DNA of 60,516 bases. Origin: an uncultured Bacteroidota bacterium (GTDB taxonomy: Bacteria > Bacteroidota > Bacteroidia > Chitinophagales > Saprospiraceae). Both the position numbers and the translations under genes were made by a program. Below the pieces are notes generated by a model, which saw nothing but the letters and a program-made list of their open reading frames with translations, had not been told where the DNA came from and did no database searches. The stretch spans positions 1-60,516 of the forward strand of contig CAIVGO010000673.1 of NCBI GenBank assembly GCA_903905445.1, given 5' to 3'. Positions within the stretch are counted from its first letter, which is position 1. Each line of letters starts with the position of its first letter. Positions 36,312-42,924 of this stretch are shown here, piece after piece.

Positions 36312-36349
36312 GGCGAAAATAATTATCCAGGCAAGCTTCAACGTCATTG

Positions 36350-37345
36350 CTATTTTTTAGAAAAGAAGGAATAACTGATGCCGGGCGTCCACAAATAAGA
36401 AGGTTTATTGCCTTCACCGTACACTGCCACCAAACCGACACGCAGGTTGAGTCCTTTCCACACCATCCAGCGAAAGCCAAAATCGGGCGAAAAGGCGTTT
36501 TTGTTTTCGTAAGAGCGGTTGAGTCCGCGCATGTAACTCAGTTGCAAATAAAAGGACGACGGATTCTGTTTTTTGCCAACCGGCAAAAACCATAAAGTGG
36601 TACCAAACTTCATAAATTGTGTAGTTTCATTCGGCTTCATATTGGTATTGTACAGGCCGCCGTGCACTGAAATTTGCTTGAAACGATATTCCAGGCCAAT
36701 GGATGGGTTTCGAAAGCCATTGATGCTAAATTCGTGGGTTGAAAAACGACTTTGGGCAAAAGAAGCAGTGCTCAACATTCCGAGCAGCAGGATTAGTGTT
36801 GCTGCTTTGGGCAATTTATAACCGAGGATGGATCCGAAAAAGCCCAAAACCGGCATCACAAATTGCATCAAAAACTTAGGTAAATCACTGGGAATCATAA
36901 TATTGTTAAATCGATTGATAAATTGAGCGGCAACTAATTTATTTCTTGGCACGCCTTGGGCATCGGTGGGCACTGTTTTTTCGAGCGCGGTAATGGTTTC
37001 TAAAAAAGTTTCAAAATTCAGGGCAGGCGATAATTGGGTTTTCACCTTTACAGTTTCTGCGCTTTCATTCCAATAACAATGGCTGGTACCGGGCATCAGG
37101 GTGATTTCTTCACCGGCTTGCAAGGTTTTGACTTCATTTCCGACTTGTATTTTTAGGGTACCCTCCAGGATTTGAAAATATTCGGTTTGTGTCGGATGGT
37201 AGTGCAAGGGTCTGCGCTGGGCATTCGGCGCCACTTCAATATCTATTTCAACATAGCGACCTGCTGTTTCCTGGGTGTTTTTTTGAATGGTGAATGTTTC
37301 ACCAAGTTTACTTGAAAAACTTTTTTTTGTGGATTGCGTTTGCAT
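36350..37345 (-). CDS. Cupin-domain protein continuing in frame into a signal-peptide-like segment and a small beta-barrel-like domain
   Basis: Residues 1-~175 form a cupin (PLHYHPTQTEYFQILEGTL...GEEITLMPGTSH). Residues 178-198 (LPKAATLILLLGMLSTASFAQ) look like a Sec signal. A ~130-aa strand-rich segment follows, ending ISYSFFSKK. Confidence 0.6.
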   Translation of the reverse strand: MQTQSTKKSFSSKLGETFTIQKNTQETAGRYVEIDIEVAPNAQRRPLHYHPTQTEYFQILEGTLKIQVGNEVKTLQAGEEITLMPGTSHCYWNESAETVKVKTQLSPALNFETFLETITALEKTVPTDAQGVPRNKLVAAQFINRFNNIMIPSDLPKFLMQFVMPVLGFFGSILGYKLPKAATLILLLGMLSTASFAQSRFSTHEFSINGFRNPSIGLEYRFKQISVHGGLYNTNMKPNETTQFMKFGTTLWFLPVGKKQNPSSFYLQLSYMRGLNRSYENKNAFSPDFGFRWMVWKGLNLRVGLVAVYGEGNKPSYLWTPGISYSFFSKK

Positions 37346-37377
37346 TGTCCTTTCTTTTAATGGTTAAAATGATAGGA

Positions 37378-37385
37378 CAAAGGTA
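37378..37385 (-). promoter_or_regulatory. -7 box TACCTTTG (minus strand), 33 nt upstream of the cupin gene
   Basis: Plus-strand CAAAGGTA. Confidence 0.5.
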
Positions 37386-37432
37386 TAGGGGGCGATAAGT
37401 GCGGTTCATGCACCTAAGTTAACAAGTGTTTT

Positions 37433-38005
37433 TTAGCCCAAAATTCTTTTACGAATTCGACTCAGGGATTGCGGTTGTACGCCTACATAAGACGCAATGT
37501 AATATTGCGGAATACGCTGTTGCATATCGGGGTATAATTCCATAAATTTGAGGTAGCGTTGTTCGGCGGTATCGACGTATAAGGAAGTGATTTCCTGTAA
37601 ACTTTCAATAAAAACTTGCTCAATCACCATGCGACCAAAACGTTCGCCGTGTTTTAACAACTTGTAAAACTGCTGCAGATCGTGGTAGGAAATGGTGAGT
37701 ATCACGGTGTCTTCCAGCGCCTGGATATTTTTAGTAGAGGGAATTTGGGGTATAAAGCTTTCATAATTACAAGTAAAACAGTGTTCAAAGCCAAATGAAT
37801 AGGTTTTCTCTAGTCCATCGGCATTGATATAATAACGAAGCAGTCCATGTACAATAAATGCAGCATGTCGGTTAATCTGGCCTTCTTGTAAAAAATGGTC
37901 AAATTTTTTGATATGTTTCTCATGAAAGAGTTGGCGGATGGTTGCTTCATCCTCAGGATAAATCGGGATTATTTGGGCGATTTTGTTTATGAGTGCCTGG
38001 ATCAT
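37433..38005 (-). CDS. Crp/Fnr family transcriptional regulator
   Basis: 190 aa. cNMP-binding-like N-domain and C-terminal HTH (IASYVGVQPQSLSRIRKRI). Confidence 0.8.
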   Translation of the reverse strand: MIQALINKIAQIIPIYPEDEATIRQLFHEKHIKKFDHFLQEGQINRHAAFIVHGLLRYYINADGLEKTYSFGFEHCFTCNYESFIPQIPSTKNIQALEDTVILTISYHDLQQFYKLLKHGERFGRMVIEQVFIESLQEITSLYVDTAEQRYLKFMELYPDMQQRIPQYYIASYVGVQPQSLSRIRKRILG

Positions 38006-38010
38006 AGTAG

Positions 38011-38041
38011 AATACCTTTATTTTGCAAAGACAAAGGTATT
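38011..38041. promoter_or_regulatory. Perfect 9-bp inverted repeat AATACCTTT-N13-AAAGGTATT overlapping the -7 box (TACCTTTG, minus strand) of the Crp/Fnr gene
   Basis: Read directly. The right arm holds CAAAGGTA at 38032-38039, 27 nt upstream of the ATG at 38005. It lies in the 56-nt gap after the MNIO gene stop. Confidence 0.5.
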
Positions 38042-38061
38042 GAAGACCGTTAAAATGGGCG

Positions 38062-39186
38062 CTAAAAACCTGATTTCCACTTTTGGGCAATGCGTAGGGC
38101 CGTTTCAAGCATGGCAGGGTGCCACTGTTCAACTTCCCAAGCTGTATTGGCCAGCGATGACGTACTTAATTGTTCCAGGCACTGCGCATAATTTTCGCAG
38201 GTTTCGAGGATCGTTGAAAGTTGTCGTTGTTGTTCAAACAACGGTATATCTTCCATAACAGGACCTAAAACAGGTAAATCTTGCGGTAAAAAGGTGTTTG
38301 TTGCTGGCTTTGAAAGCTGGCAGGCTTTTACTATTTCATCCATTTTTAAAAAATCGGCCTGAAACAATGCTCGACTGGCTTCCGTGCGCAAACCAACGCC
38401 CAATTGCTCCAGGACCACAAATTTCAGGTTAGGGCATCGTGGCAGGGCATATTCTAAAAACTGAAAAACCTCCGCGGGAACCCCGTCATCGTGGGTATCT
38501 CTGCGTACCATTTTTTCAGGTTGTACCGCAGTTTGATCCCAACTTCCGCCTGAAATATGGATTTCGCGCACCCGATCAAGCGGATAAAGCGCCAATAATG
38601 CATCTACGGGCAGGTCAAAATTGTGGGTTTGACAATAAAGGTTGTGTAAATCGAGGATAATAAACCCGTTGAGCGGGGCAAGCAAGGCCTCCAGAAACGC
38701 GCCATGGCGTTTTACTTCCTCTAATGTATAAGAGAAAGCCAGGTTTTCTAATCCGACCGGACAGGCGCAGGCGTCGTATATGCGCGCGAGTCGATCGCGG
38801 CCAATGGCCAGCGTTGCGGGGGTAAAGGGGATACTCATCGGCGCTCCGGTATGAAAATTGGCGCCTGTCATAAAACCGAAATGCTCGGTAATATGATCAA
38901 AATGAAAGGTTTTACACAAATTGTGCAGTTGCTCCAACCACCCTGTTTGTGCCTCTGACCATTTTCCGGAGAAAAGCGAAAAAAACACCCCATGCCCAAT
39001 CAATCGTTGCTCGGCACTGTACGCATGAAGCAGTTGTGTAAACCATTCGGGTACCTCCTTTATTTTGAACAAGGTATCGAACGACCATTCAATTGCTTCA
39101 ATTTTTTCTGCCTCCAAAAGTGGCAGCGCGGCCTGCAAAACATGCTGATCGAGGTTGCAGGCGATTGCCGAATAAATATTGCGCAT
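38062..39186 (-). CDS. DUF692 / MNIO (multinuclear non-heme iron oxidative enzyme; MbnB/TglH/ChrH-like) with a ~90-aa C-terminal extension
   Basis: Ordered motifs HGVFFSL, TEHFGF, GLENL, LDLHNLY, EIHISGG, RRDTHDD and VVLEQ correspond to the His/Asp/Glu metal-ligand series of the TIM-barrel DUF692 family as I recall it (MbnB has SDH, LEN, DxxN, HxAG, DTHD, ER). Residues ~285-374 extend beyond the usual domain end. Confidence 0.8.
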   Translation of the reverse strand: MRNIYSAIACNLDQHVLQAALPLLEAEKIEAIEWSFDTLFKIKEVPEWFTQLLHAYSAEQRLIGHGVFFSLFSGKWSEAQTGWLEQLHNLCKTFHFDHITEHFGFMTGANFHTGAPMSIPFTPATLAIGRDRLARIYDACACPVGLENLAFSYTLEEVKRHGAFLEALLAPLNGFIILDLHNLYCQTHNFDLPVDALLALYPLDRVREIHISGGSWDQTAVQPEKMVRRDTHDDGVPAEVFQFLEYALPRCPNLKFVVLEQLGVGLRTEASRALFQADFLKMDEIVKACQLSKPATNTFLPQDLPVLGPVMEDIPLFEQQRQLSTILETCENYAQCLEQLSTSSLANTAWEVEQWHPAMLETALRIAQKWKSGF

Positions 39187-39204
39187 GGGGTGCTTTAAGG
39201 GGTA

Positions 39205-39393
39205 TTAGCCCATGCCGCAGGCTGGACAGTTGTCCAATTCGGGCTCAGGGTTTTCGGTATGATCAATTTGGCAGTTTTCATTGCAACTTTTGAGGTGAAT
39301 TTGTTCTTTTTCGAACAATTCGCAGGAAGAAGCGGTGGTGCCGAGGGTAAGGCCAACCACAATGGCCTGAAGTAATGATTTAGAGATTTTCAT
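39205..39393 (-). CDS. Candidate RiPP precursor peptide (62 aa, 5 Cys, C-terminal CPACGMG)
   Basis: MKISKSLLQAIVVGLTLGTTASSC (signal/lipobox-like) + ELFEKEQIHLKSCNENCQIDHTENPEPELDN + CPACGMG. Stop codon is 18 nt upstream of the MNIO start on the same strand. Confidence 0.65.
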   Translation of the reverse strand: MKISKSLLQAIVVGLTLGTTASSCELFEKEQIHLKSCNENCQIDHTENPEPELDNCPACGMG

Positions 39394-40487: not shown

Positions 40488-40495
40488 TACTTTTG
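40488..40495 (+). promoter_or_regulatory. -7 box TACTTTTG
   Basis: Exact TAnnTTTG match, 16 nt upstream of the ATG at 40511. Argues against the track start at 40493. Confidence 0.5.
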
Positions 40496-40510
40496 GCGCG
40501 CAATCAACTT

Positions 40511-41842
40511 ATGAGTTTTTTAGAACGCCTTCTTGGAATTAGTACCGACAAAAAATCCACGCAACCCGAGGTTGTGTTTGGACGGTATAGTGATGCCTAT
40601 AAAACAGAAGCACAGATCACTGCATTCGACCAATCCCTCGAAATATTTGAAAAAGGCGAATACCTGAATGCCTACCGCGAATTCCTGATCAGCCTCAAAG
40701 ATCCGGATGTTGATCATCTGGAATGGGCGGAAGCAGACGGTGTGCTCACTTTTCAATTTTGGCAAGGATCACAGTTGATTACCGGTGTCGCCAATGCAGA
40801 AAAGGTAAAGGTACAAAGTCTGGTAGCACGCGCCGAAGATTTGAACGTTGGCGTATTACGTCGCCTGGTAACGGCCAATTTTACCTTAAAATTTAGTCGT
40901 TTTGCCCTTACCCCTGATAATTGTCTGAGTATTCAGTTCGACACCAGCACGGCCGATGGCTCGCCGCTGAAGTTGATGTATGCTTTGCGGGAGTTGGCCA
41001 TTTATGCCGACAAGCAGGATGACCTGCTGCTCGACGAATTTGATACCCTGCAACCGGTGGTAGCGCGCACTTTTGGCGAAATACCCGAGGCGGAGAAAGA
41101 AGTAAAATACCAGTTTATCCGTTCTGAAATCGAGCGGGTATTTGCCGAATTAGACAAAGCCAAGCCTGATCCCAATCAATATCCGGGCGCTTACGCCTAT
41201 TTATTGCTGTCTTTGGCCTTCAAACTCGACTATTTGGTTCGACCAGAAGGGTTTATGATGGATGTGCTGGAAAAAATCCACGGCATTTATTTTGCAAAAA
41301 ATGAAAAAACGCCGCAGGTGAAGGTGGCCAATATGCGCCGGGAATACCAGAAATTATTGGACCGGAGCAAAGCCGATTTTTTCAAAGAAATGTACCGCAC
41401 ACGCAGCACTTTTGGCGTTAATCCGGCAGTAAATCACGGCAGCGTGGTGGCTTTGATTGATGGCGAATTGCCCAATATGGAATGGCCTTTGCAACAAAAC
41501 CACGAAGTTTTGGCCTTGGCGGTCCCTCAATATATTGCTGGTTTTGCGTTGTTTCACTATGCGCCGCCGCAGCCGGTACGAGCCTTTTTCCACTTGTTTT
41601 TTCAGATCATGGAACCGGCATTTTTCAAAAACTTGGGCTTTACGGTTACTTTTGCAGATGGAGCGGGACGATTAGACAAACGTGCCATTTTACAAGGCAT
41701 CAAGCAAATTACCGATCAATACCGGCCTCAATTCCCACAGCTCCGACCTGACCAACATGCGTTGGATTTTGCTTCCCATACCCTTTTTGCCAAGTCTTAC
41801 CTCCTGATGGTCAAAGATTTAAACCTTATCAAGGCCGAATGA
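40511..41842 (+). CDS. Hypothetical protein (443 aa), N-terminal region YbjN/T3SS-chaperone-like by eye
   Basis: No catalytic motifs recognised. The segment DGVLTFQFWQGSQLITGVAN..KVKVQSLV..NFTLKFSRFAL resembles the beta-sheet pattern of YbjN-type domains. ATGA overlap with the next gene. Confidence 0.5.
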   Translation: MSFLERLLGISTDKKSTQPEVVFGRYSDAYKTEAQITAFDQSLEIFEKGEYLNAYREFLISLKDPDVDHLEWAEADGVLTFQFWQGSQLITGVANAEKVKVQSLVARAEDLNVGVLRRLVTANFTLKFSRFALTPDNCLSIQFDTSTADGSPLKLMYALRELAIYADKQDDLLLDEFDTLQPVVARTFGEIPEAEKEVKYQFIRSEIERVFAELDKAKPDPNQYPGAYAYLLLSLAFKLDYLVRPEGFMMDVLEKIHGIYFAKNEKTPQVKVANMRREYQKLLDRSKADFFKEMYRTRSTFGVNPAVNHGSVVALIDGELPNMEWPLQQNHEVLALAVPQYIAGFALFHYAPPQPVRAFFHLFFQIMEPAFFKNLGFTVTFADGAGRLDKRAILQGIKQITDQYRPQFPQLRPDQHALDFASHTLFAKSYLLMVKDLNLIKAE

Positions 41843-42924
41843 CCGATTTTGTTGAAATATATCGCCAGGTAATTGTTCAAATTGCCACGCCCAACAGCAC
41901 CGGTACCGGCTTTTTTCTCCGGAACCAAGGCCTGATTGTCACCAACCATCATGTGGTGGAAGGCAATCGCTCGGTTGTAATTGAAGGTGCAGGTTTTACC
42001 AAACAATTGGCGCGGGTGTGTTATACCGATCAAAAGTACGACCTGGCTTTTCTGGAAGGCCCTAAAAATGGTCCGGAATTGCCCGAAGTTCACTTGGGTA
42101 CGGATACCAATATTCGGGAAGGGGATCCGGTTATGGCCATTGGACACCCGTTTGGCCTAAAATTTTCGGTAAAAAGCGGCATTGTCTCAAATACCCGCGA
42201 AGTGATGAATGGCATCCCGTACCTGCATATCGACGCGGCGCTCAACCCGGGCAACAGCGGCGGCCCTTTGGTCAGCAACATTGGTACGGTGGTAGGAATC
42301 AATACTTTTGTGATTCAAAATGGCGATAATACCGGATTTTCTTTGCCGGTGCGTTATTTACAATCGGCCCTTGAAGATTTTCAACGGGTGGATACCCATA
42401 ATGCCGCGCGTTGCCCAGCCTGCCTGAATGTGGTAACCGAAAAAACCGTGGAAAAGCATTTTTGCTCCCACTGTGGCAACAAGGTGGAACTCCCCGCTAC
42501 GGTGGAAGAATTTGTACCTTCCGGGGTGCCCAAAACCATCGAATCACTGATTGTGCAAATCGGACATGATGTAGATTTGAGCCGTTGCGGCCCTAATGCC
42601 TGGGAAATTCGCGAGGGAAGTGCCAAGATTCTGATTACTTATCATGAAAAAACCGGACTGATTTCTGCCGACGCGATTTTATGTGAATTGCCCAAGGAAA
42701 ATATCAAACCTTTATACGAGTACTTGTTGCGCGAAAACCACCACAATGAATCCGTCACTTTAAGCGTGCACGAACAAGATATTATCCTTTCCCTGCTTAT
42801 TTTCGATCGATATTTGGATGAAACGACCGGCATGGCCAAATTGCGGATGTTGTTCGAAAAAGCCGACTACTACGACAATATTCTGGTGGAAACTTATGGT
42901 GCCAACTGGAAAGTAGAAGACTAA
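41839..42924 (+). CDS. Trypsin-like (S1) serine protease + CxxC...CxxC zinc ribbon + YbjN-like C-terminal domain
   Basis: Triad contexts TNHHVVEG (His), YDLAFL (Asp), GNSGGPL (Ser). CPACLN...CSHCGNK zinc ribbon. C-terminal WEIREGSAKILITYHEKTGLISADAIL...YEYLLREN. Confidence 0.75.
   Translation: MTDFVEIYRQVIVQIATPNSTGTGFFLRNQGLIVTNHHVVEGNRSVVIEGAGFTKQLARVCYTDQKYDLAFLEGPKNGPELPEVHLGTDTNIREGDPVMAIGHPFGLKFSVKSGIVSNTREVMNGIPYLHIDAALNPGNSGGPLVSNIGTVVGINTFVIQNGDNTGFSLPVRYLQSALEDFQRVDTHNAARCPACLNVVTEKTVEKHFCSHCGNKVELPATVEEFVPSGVPKTIESLIVQIGHDVDLSRCGPNAWEIREGSAKILITYHEKTGLISADAILCELPKENIKPLYEYLLRENHHNESVTLSVHEQDIILSLLIFDRYLDETTGMAKLRMLFEKADYYDNILVETYGANWKVED

Follow-up and report, generated by a model that had tools for sequence, protein, structure and literature searches.

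We analysed a 60,516-nt stretch of DNA from an uncultured Saprospiraceae bacterium (contig CAIVGO010000673.1, positions 1-60,516; hereafter the window), in which two adjacent genes on the minus strand very probably form a self-contained, two-gene cassette of the DybA/DybH type, a family of lipidated peptides of ribosomal synthesis with post-translational modifications (RiPPs) named DAG-RiPPs. The first gene (39205..39393) encodes a dybA-like precursor of 62 aa plus stop, MKISKSLLQAIVVGLTLGTTASSCELFEKEQIHLKSCNENCQIDHTENPEPELDNCPACGMG, and is followed, after an intergenic spacer of 18 nt (39187..39204), by a dybH-like gene for a 374-aa enzyme of the multinuclear iron-dependent oxidase family (MNIO, DUF692; 38062..39186). 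A preliminary description, made from the sequence alone, had reported two open reading frames (ORFs) in this arrangement on one strand and read them as a RiPP precursor beside an MNIO. Both ORFs are present, the observation is confirmed as real and far beyond chance, and the cassette reading is supported within the ChrA/ChrH (chryseobasin) lineage. That description had further proposed an undescribed MNIO architecture or product on account of three differences from known systems. This proposal is rejected, since all three have already been published for DybA/DybH (Chen, Zhu, Zhang, Berthold, van der Donk, PNAS 2026; PMC13056109, preprint PMC12636315). The outcome is a useful, if unsurprising, annotation, which extends the DybA/DybH family of lipidated RiPPs to a Saprospiraceae genome and confirms the autonomy of the two-gene module. 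The sole undescribed feature of the cassette is a lineage-restricted His/Cys block in the precursor core.

Kinship with the published Dyb systems

The ChrH subfamily of MNIOs comprises a cluster from Chryseobacterium and a cluster from other Bacteroidota, the latter with shorter precursors that contain one further invariant Cys, namely the lipobox Cys in a signal peptidase II (SPII) signal (PMC13056109). DybH of Dyadobacter crusticola, acting alone both in vivo and in vitro, converts the CPACGMG motif of DybA into a macrocycle and a hydantoin with a mass change of -4 Da and a free thiol; the modification is confined to this motif and leaves the other Cys of DybA alone, and Cys23 of DybA is triacylated by the lipoprotein machinery of E. 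coli (PMC13056109). The evidence for the -4 Da macrocycle/hydantoin chemistry, the partner-free activity and the triacylation comes from experiments on DybAH, ChsAH and HymAH (PMC13056109).

Among the loci that we retrieved, one (L055) is the dyb locus of D. crusticola DSM 16708, whose upstream ORF contains Met26-Asp27, the published insertion point of a His tag. Aligned over its full 374 residues, up to the C-terminal end, the window enzyme shares 60% identity with DybH; between DybH and ChrH, the identity is 40% (PMC13056109). The DUF692 search suggested by the preliminary description was clearly significant (PF05114, MbnB_TglH_ChrH; 98.7 bits, cutoff 25, E 4.3e-28). At the more specific level, NF050165 (MNIO_ChrH, 363 positions) aligns to the full-length enzyme with 379.5 bits, close to the 385 bits of DybH, and both scores lie below the equivalog cutoff of 600, so the enzyme is a relative of ChrH that stands outside the Chryseobacterium equivalog group. 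The precursor scores 64.9 bits with NF050125 ('chryseobasin-related MNIO class RiPP peptide'), above the cutoff of 40 and next to 61.1 bits for DybA.

The organization of the locus agrees with that of its characterised relatives. Like DybA/DybH, ChsAH (Chitinophaga sancti) and HymAH (Hymenobacter gelipurpurascens), the window pair is a precursor-then-MNIO module with neither a partner protein nor a conserved neighbourhood, and the precursor shares with DybA an MK(I/L)SK... SPII signal, the lipobox Cys and the terminal CPACGMG. A scan of one genome per species returned 323 relatives, the best 80 of which, from Saprospiraceae, Chitinophaga, Dyadobacter, Hymenobacter, Spirosoma, Pontibacter and others, were used for locus analyses; further locus counts are over 81 loci, and precursor classes were counted on 76 genomic precursors. 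In 75 of the 80 homologous loci, the enzyme gene is immediately preceded by a small ORF with a CPxCG[ML]G terminus; the spacer is mostly -16 to ~60 nt, with exceptions that reach 216 nt. When 26 window proteins (24-54 kb) were compared with the 80 loci by tblastn, they were found beside the cassette solely in two close metagenome-assembled genomes (MAGs), and the families obtained by all-vs-all clustering of 757 flanking ORFs each recur in at most 5 of 81 loci. A larger gene cluster was rejected, as neither tblastn, nor flanking-ORF clustering, nor a profile search for TonB-dependent receptors returned a conserved neighbour. In the synteny, the absence of conserved neighbours and the unrelated housekeeping genes that surround the cassette, the window pair matches the published description of a Dyb-type system. 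What the analysis demonstrates for the pair itself is the structure of its genes, the families to which they belong, the conservation of the ligand positions, the fold, the agreement with the lipobox rule, the synteny and the lack of conserved partner or neighbour genes. Unlike the Dyb systems, the pair comes from a Saprospiraceae lineage.

Several points weigh against a simple transfer of the Dyb findings to this pair. At 60% identity to DybH, the chemistry could differ in detail, and the products of ChrH and ArlH are S-methylated for a reason that, according to the authors, is not understood (PMC13056109). The -3 residue of the lipobox is Ala, where Leu is classical. In addition, the mature core departs from that of DybA in being longer (39 versus 28 aa), in being strongly acidic rather than basic (net charge ~-7), and in bringing the precursor to five Cys rather than three; the two extra Cys, together with two His, make up an H-x3-C-x3-C-x-I-D-H block. 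Given these differences, the product may have traits that DybA does not show, for instance a disulfide, bound metal or a further modification.

The three traits that had been taken as departures from described systems all turned out to be family traits. No partner gene is adjacent, as had been stated, but in the Bacteroidota branch outside Chryseobacterium this is the norm according to the literature; DybH is active alone, and even ChrI, when re-examined, was dispensable for ChrH (PMC13056109). The enzyme is indeed longer than its domain, by an extension of ~100 aa, yet a C-terminal helical bundle (~7.8 kDa) is reported for all ChrH-family members (PMC13056109). The precursor does have a lipobox, which is a hallmark of DybA-type DAG-RiPPs rather than a novelty. 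A new class built from a partner-less, extended enzyme and a lipidated precursor would find some favour in that these features are genuinely unusual relative to MbnBC, TglHI and BufBC. However, all three have been characterised experimentally for DybAH and homologues, and MNIOs from Saprospiraceae and Flavilitoribacter are already present in the enzyme table of that study (PMC13056109), leaving such a class with practically no credence.

It is also very improbable that the pair makes a chryseobasin proper, that is, a soluble peptide secreted through signal peptidase I (SPI) and S-methylated (+10 Da) as in Chryseobacterium (Ayikpoe et al., ACS Cent Sci 2023; PMC10214503). ChrA/ChrH(/ChrI) has in common with the window pair the MNIO subfamily, the C-terminal extension and CPACGMG, which the preliminary description had named as the ChrA motif, correctly so according to PMC10214503; the macrocycle/hydantoin chemistry is a shared expectation. 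In contrast to the short, lipobox-bearing precursor of the window, ChrA is longer, has an SPI signal and is without the lipobox Cys, and the window enzyme, like DybH, falls well short of the 600-bit ChrH cutoff. Whereas the chr operon contains conserved genes for ChrI (DUF1772), a ribulose-phosphate 3-epimerase and an M42 peptidase, a scan of 18 proteins encoded nearby, from 24.8 to 46.2 kb, found none of these, nor MbnC or TglI. Moreover, the +14 Da of S-methylation is a ChrA trait, while the characterised Dyb-type homologues show only -4 Da.

Enzyme, precursor and proposed pathway

The catalytic domain of the enzyme, a MNIO (DUF692) TIM barrel supported by PF05114, alignments and an AlphaFold2 model, comprises residues 1-265 (38392..39186). 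The motifs HGVFFSL, TEHFGF, GLENL, LDLHNLY, EIHISGG, RRDTHDD and VVLEQ occur in the order described before, starting at residues 65, 100, 145, 178, 208, 228 and 257, and the motifs that hold the ligand positions align with their counterparts in TglH (8HCI) and 3BWW. Nine positions (H65, H102, E147, D179, N182, H210, D230, H232 and E260) are invariant in alignments of both 81 genomic and 63 database homologues; by analogy with the published MbnB and TglH structures, they would be the iron ligands. The AlphaFold2 model, based on the 63-sequence alignment, is of high confidence (pLDDT, the score predicted for the local distance difference test, 89.7; predicted template modelling score, pTM, 0.91) and shows an alternating beta/alpha core up to approximately residue 260. 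The structures that Foldseek places first for it are those of TglH, MbnB and 3BWW, with E from 7e-14 to 2e-9; the Protein Data Bank (PDB) contains neither a ChrH nor a DybH structure. MbnB/MbnC (methanobactin) and TglH/TglI (3-thiaglutamate) share with the window enzyme the TIM-barrel multinuclear-iron fold and the ligand series and are its best structural matches, but they are only 14-20% identical to it, need partner proteins, have no C-terminal bundle, and act on other substrates, from precursors that are not lipidated, to give other products.

The C-terminal extension, seen in the model and alignments, spans residues 266-374 (38065..38391). As modelled, it consists of a helix at 269-288, a linker at ~289-313 and helices at 314-329, 333-341 and 357-369. 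About 20 positions in the last 100 residues of the enzyme are invariant or near-invariant across homologues, and conserved residues of the extension include F279, F299, Q320, L323, L327, S343, W350, W355, P357, I366, K369 and W370. The extension corresponds to the ~7.8 kDa helical bundle of the ChrH family. A related case is provided by MelA1/MelH/MelHc from a Melainabacteria MAG (PMC13056109), in which a C-terminal CPACGMG is likewise modified with -4 Da. However, the substrate is a 34-kDa secreted tetratricopeptide-repeat protein, and the helical bundle is a separate polypeptide, needed for activity, whereas it is fused in the window enzyme.

In the precursor, the elements TASSC, CNENC and terminal NCPACGMG were all located where they had been described. 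Residues 1-23, MKISKSLLQAIVVGLTLGTTASS (39325..39393), constitute a predicted SPII (lipoprotein) signal peptide under a PROSITE PS51257-style rule, with K2 and K5 in the n-region, an uncharged h-region, the lipobox A-S-S-C and Cys at position 24; the same rule is satisfied by 64 of the 76 family precursors, and the N-terminus MK[ILV]SKSLLQAI is nearly invariant among precursor relatives. The earlier suggestion that the peptide is exportable or lipidated is thus borne out insofar as it carries a lipoprotein-type signal by this rule. Cleavage is predicted between MKISKSLLQAIVVGLTLGTTASS and the 39-aa mature peptide CELFEKEQIHLKSCNENCQIDHTENPEPELDNCPACGMG, of which Cys24 (39322..39324), invariant in the alignment, is residue +1 and, by analogy, the predicted site of S-diacylglyceryl and N-acyl groups. 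At the other end, CPACGMG (39208..39228; C56 and C59), kept as CPxCGxG and invariant among precursor relatives, is by sequence and homology the predicted MNIO substrate. The AlphaFold2 model of the precursor has a pLDDT of 51, and the signal helix is its sole predicted structure.

A pathway may be proposed by homology to DybAH, from which not only the chemistry but also the sequence of steps and the lipidation are transferred. The 62-aa precursor would be translated first, and the partner-independent oxidase would recognise its C-terminal CPACGMG in the cytoplasm; the enzyme has no signal peptide at its N-terminus, which is consistent with cytoplasmic modification preceding export. An O2-dependent four-electron oxidation would then link Cys56 to the former Cys59, giving at the motif a small macrocycle, two thiohemiaminals and a hydantoin (imidazolidinedione) across Gly60-Met61, with one free thiol remaining and a net change of -4 Da. 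The modified peptide would be exported by Sec, after which Lgt would add diacylglycerol to Cys24, signal peptidase II (LspA) would cut after Ser23 and Lnt would N-acylate Cys24. The predicted end product is a strongly acidic, triacylated, membrane-anchored lipopeptide of 39 residues, probably situated in the outer membrane, at the cell surface or on vesicles.

The residues that follow the lipobox Cys vary with precursor type. Saprospiraceae-type precursors (the HCCH/Cx3C class) often have C-[SE]-L-F-[EKD]-x-[ED] right after the lipobox Cys (39301-39321 in the window), whereas C-[GS]-K-D-[DE] stands at the lipobox of the Chitinophaga and Dyadobacter types. In Bacteroidota, KDD and Asp-rich stretches have been linked with signals for export to the surface or to vesicles (PMC13056109), and the differing signature of the Saprospiraceae type might mean a different localisation.

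The His/Cys block of the precursor core

In the middle of the core, H33-LKS-C37-NEN-C41-QID-H45 (39259..39297) forms a block of the pattern H-x3-C-x3-C-x-[ILVM]-D-H, a candidate metal site. The block is not found in DybA or in ChsA-type or HymA-type precursors. It is present in 15 of the 76 genomic precursors, and C-x3-C-x3-C occurs in 4 more, 3 of which also have x3-H; the carriers belong nearly all to Saprospiraceae-like lineages. A cultured organism with an HCCH-type precursor is Flavilitoribacter nigricans DSM 23189 (L010). In a search of 5.8 billion proteins, whose ranking was blind to the motif, the block is kept in the top 17 of 35 peptide relatives and lost from more distant ones that have the same signal peptide and the same CPACGMG. 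It stands as a conserved island between the variable post-lipobox stretch before it and a variable linker of ~7-22 residues after it, and H33, C37, C41, D44 and H45 show zero non-synonymous changes relative to the two close MAGs (L001 and L002). Mature peptides of the block class have a mean charge of -5.7 and 43 aa, compared with +1.0 and 32 aa for the DybA type. The text of PMC13056109 does not mention the block, and 0 of the 34 chryseobasin-like lipoprotein precursors in its Table S6 carry it. A literature search for the motif returned nothing, and a PDB profile search with the core gave only matches with E>1, driven by the generic CPxCG knuckle. We considered whether the enzymes of HCCH-type precursors form a clade of their own and rejected this, as a neighbour-joining tree scatters them among Saprospiraceae-like branches and they are not monophyletic.

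One explanation, which would extend the Dyb-type reading rather than replace it, is that the block binds Cu or Zn after export, possibly together with the C-terminal free thiol. We consider this possible but tentative. The block is kept as an island in the 17 closest database relatives, and in several lineages its first His is replaced by Cys at the fixed spacing of i, i+4, i+8 and i+12 (C-x3-C-x3-C-x3-H in L006, L023, L014 and P0025). Exchange of His for Cys ligands is typical of metal sites and would not be expected for a disulfide, and the replacement at fixed spacing therefore suggests the former. The acidity of the mature peptides of the block class points the same way, as does the copper binding of other MNIO RiPPs (methanobactin, bufferins and oxazolins). 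The lipidated oxazolin NedA/NedBC (PMC13056109) and the lipoprotein-type bufferins (Leprevost et al. 2025, PMC12452194) also share with the window pair an MNIO-modified Cys RiPP on the lipoprotein route, and their metal-binding role offers a plausible analogy for the block; however, they involve another MNIO subfamily, a required partner (NedC or BufC), EGKCG motifs, and oxazolone-thioamide or thiooxazole chemistry. In the closest relatives, furthermore, a gene for a TonB-dependent receptor follows the MNIO gene after ~60 nt, but across the family such a receptor lies within 5 kb of the enzyme in just 7 of 81 loci by profile search; the neighbourhood table of the preprint (PMC12636315) lists TonB-receptor domains at a frequency of ~0.4 over ten genes on either side. 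Also against a metal site are the searches in the PDB and the literature, which found no similar motif, and the more remote relatives in which signal peptide and CPACGMG persist but the block is missing, so that it is dispensable for the core function of the family. The precursor model is unstructured at the block; being unreliable, it neither supports nor refutes a helical His/Cys face.

Should this explanation hold, the Saprospiraceae-type precursors could perhaps be regarded as an undescribed sub-class of DAG-RiPPs, in which a [H/C]-x3-C-x3-C-x3-H metal site and the free thiol of the macrocycle are combined in an anchored metallolipopeptide. A metallolipopeptide anchored at the surface or on vesicles would serve metal capture, buffering or delivery, and would offer a first lead to what the products of the ChrH/DybH family do. 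With its evident extra ligands, the block sub-class is a natural test case for a metal-related role of ChrH/DybH products.

Alternatively, the MNIO, or some other enzyme, could have a second target in C37-x3-C41, giving a chemically new product modified at two sites. MNIOs typically act on Cys and some do so at several positions, NedA losing 12 Da over three EGKCG motifs (PMC13056109), and the extra Cys pair is conserved. However, CNENC is unlike CPxCGxG, the motif that is recognised, conservation between its two Cys is poor (N38 0.18, E39 0.59), and DybH acted solely on the C-terminal motif of DybA. Neither a separate enzyme clade for HCCH-type precursors nor a conserved nearby tailoring enzyme (81 loci) accompanies the block, and we therefore regard a second modification site as unlikely. 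The Dyb-type cassette, modified at its C-terminal CPACGMG, remains the preferred reading of the pair.

Gene surroundings and minor observations

Relative to relatives of 90-93% identity, the codon changes in the peptide gene are 10 synonymous and 2-5 non-synonymous. The precursor gene is the sole window ORF ending in CxxCGxG, so that there is no second precursor copy in the window. A promoter and terminator scan gave counts not above those in shuffled sequence, with a tool that does not cover Bacteroidota promoters.

Elsewhere in the family the number of precursors varies. Tandem precursor pairs occur in five related loci (L005, L021, L031, L062 and L080), and the extra copies include the variants CIACGRG (L031) and CPPCGRG (L005) and one with an additional core Cys (L021). 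In four loci with DybH-like enzymes (L046, L047, L048 and L068), the fetched 8-17 kb contain no ORF with a CxxCGxG terminus, and the 700 nt upstream of the enzyme hold no candidate with a Cys; the enzymes of L046, L048 and L068 make up a single clade. The precursor of these four may be encoded elsewhere or have a different motif.

By Pfam assignment, the genes around the cassette in the window encode a GSCFA-family protein, a Crp-like regulator, a cupin-containing ORF, a TonB-dependent receptor, an enzyme of the 5-enolpyruvylshikimate-3-phosphate (EPSP) synthase family and an MqnA-like menaquinone enzyme, as well as an alanine dehydrogenase, an MscS channel, an HtrA-like protease, a major facilitator superfamily transporter, a uridine kinase and a nucleoside transporter.

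The closest enzyme matches, at 93-94% protein identity, are in two Saprospiraceae MAGs, which places the window in that lineage. These MAGs, which are 90-93% identical to the window, are without ~1.6-1.7 kb directly after the MNIO stop codon (window 36326-38062; L001:9123, L002:9127), a segment that in the window holds two ORFs, one for the Crp-like regulator (37433-38005) and the cupin-containing one (36350-37345); it is in these MAGs that the receptor gene stands ~60 nt after the MNIO gene. L002 keeps a ~130-nt remnant of the 3' end of the cupin ORF, which makes independent or nested deletions in the relatives likelier than an insertion in the window. A mobile-element origin of this 1.7-kb segment between enzyme and TonB receptor was considered and set aside, since there are no convincing terminal repeats and the remnant in L002 favours deletions.

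The cupin-containing ORF (331 aa, minus strand) itself looks like two units. A cupin_2 domain at residues 36-101 in its N-terminal part is followed by a signal-peptide-like stretch, KAATLILLLGMLSTASFAQS, and the ORF ends with a segment of ~130 aa of beta-strand-like alternation terminating in ...SYSFFSKK. From its sequence, this last segment may be a small outer-membrane barrel, and the ORF could be a fusion or two mis-joined genes.

On the plus strand, 41839-42924 encodes a cytoplasmic-looking HtrA/trypsin-like protease with a C-terminal CxxC...CxxC that matches a NOB1 Zn ribbon (E 5e-5). This gene overlaps by 4 nt the upstream 449-aa ORF (40493-41842, plus strand), whose only match, to FhuF, is weak and sub-threshold; the two genes are conserved as a pair in the two close MAGs only.

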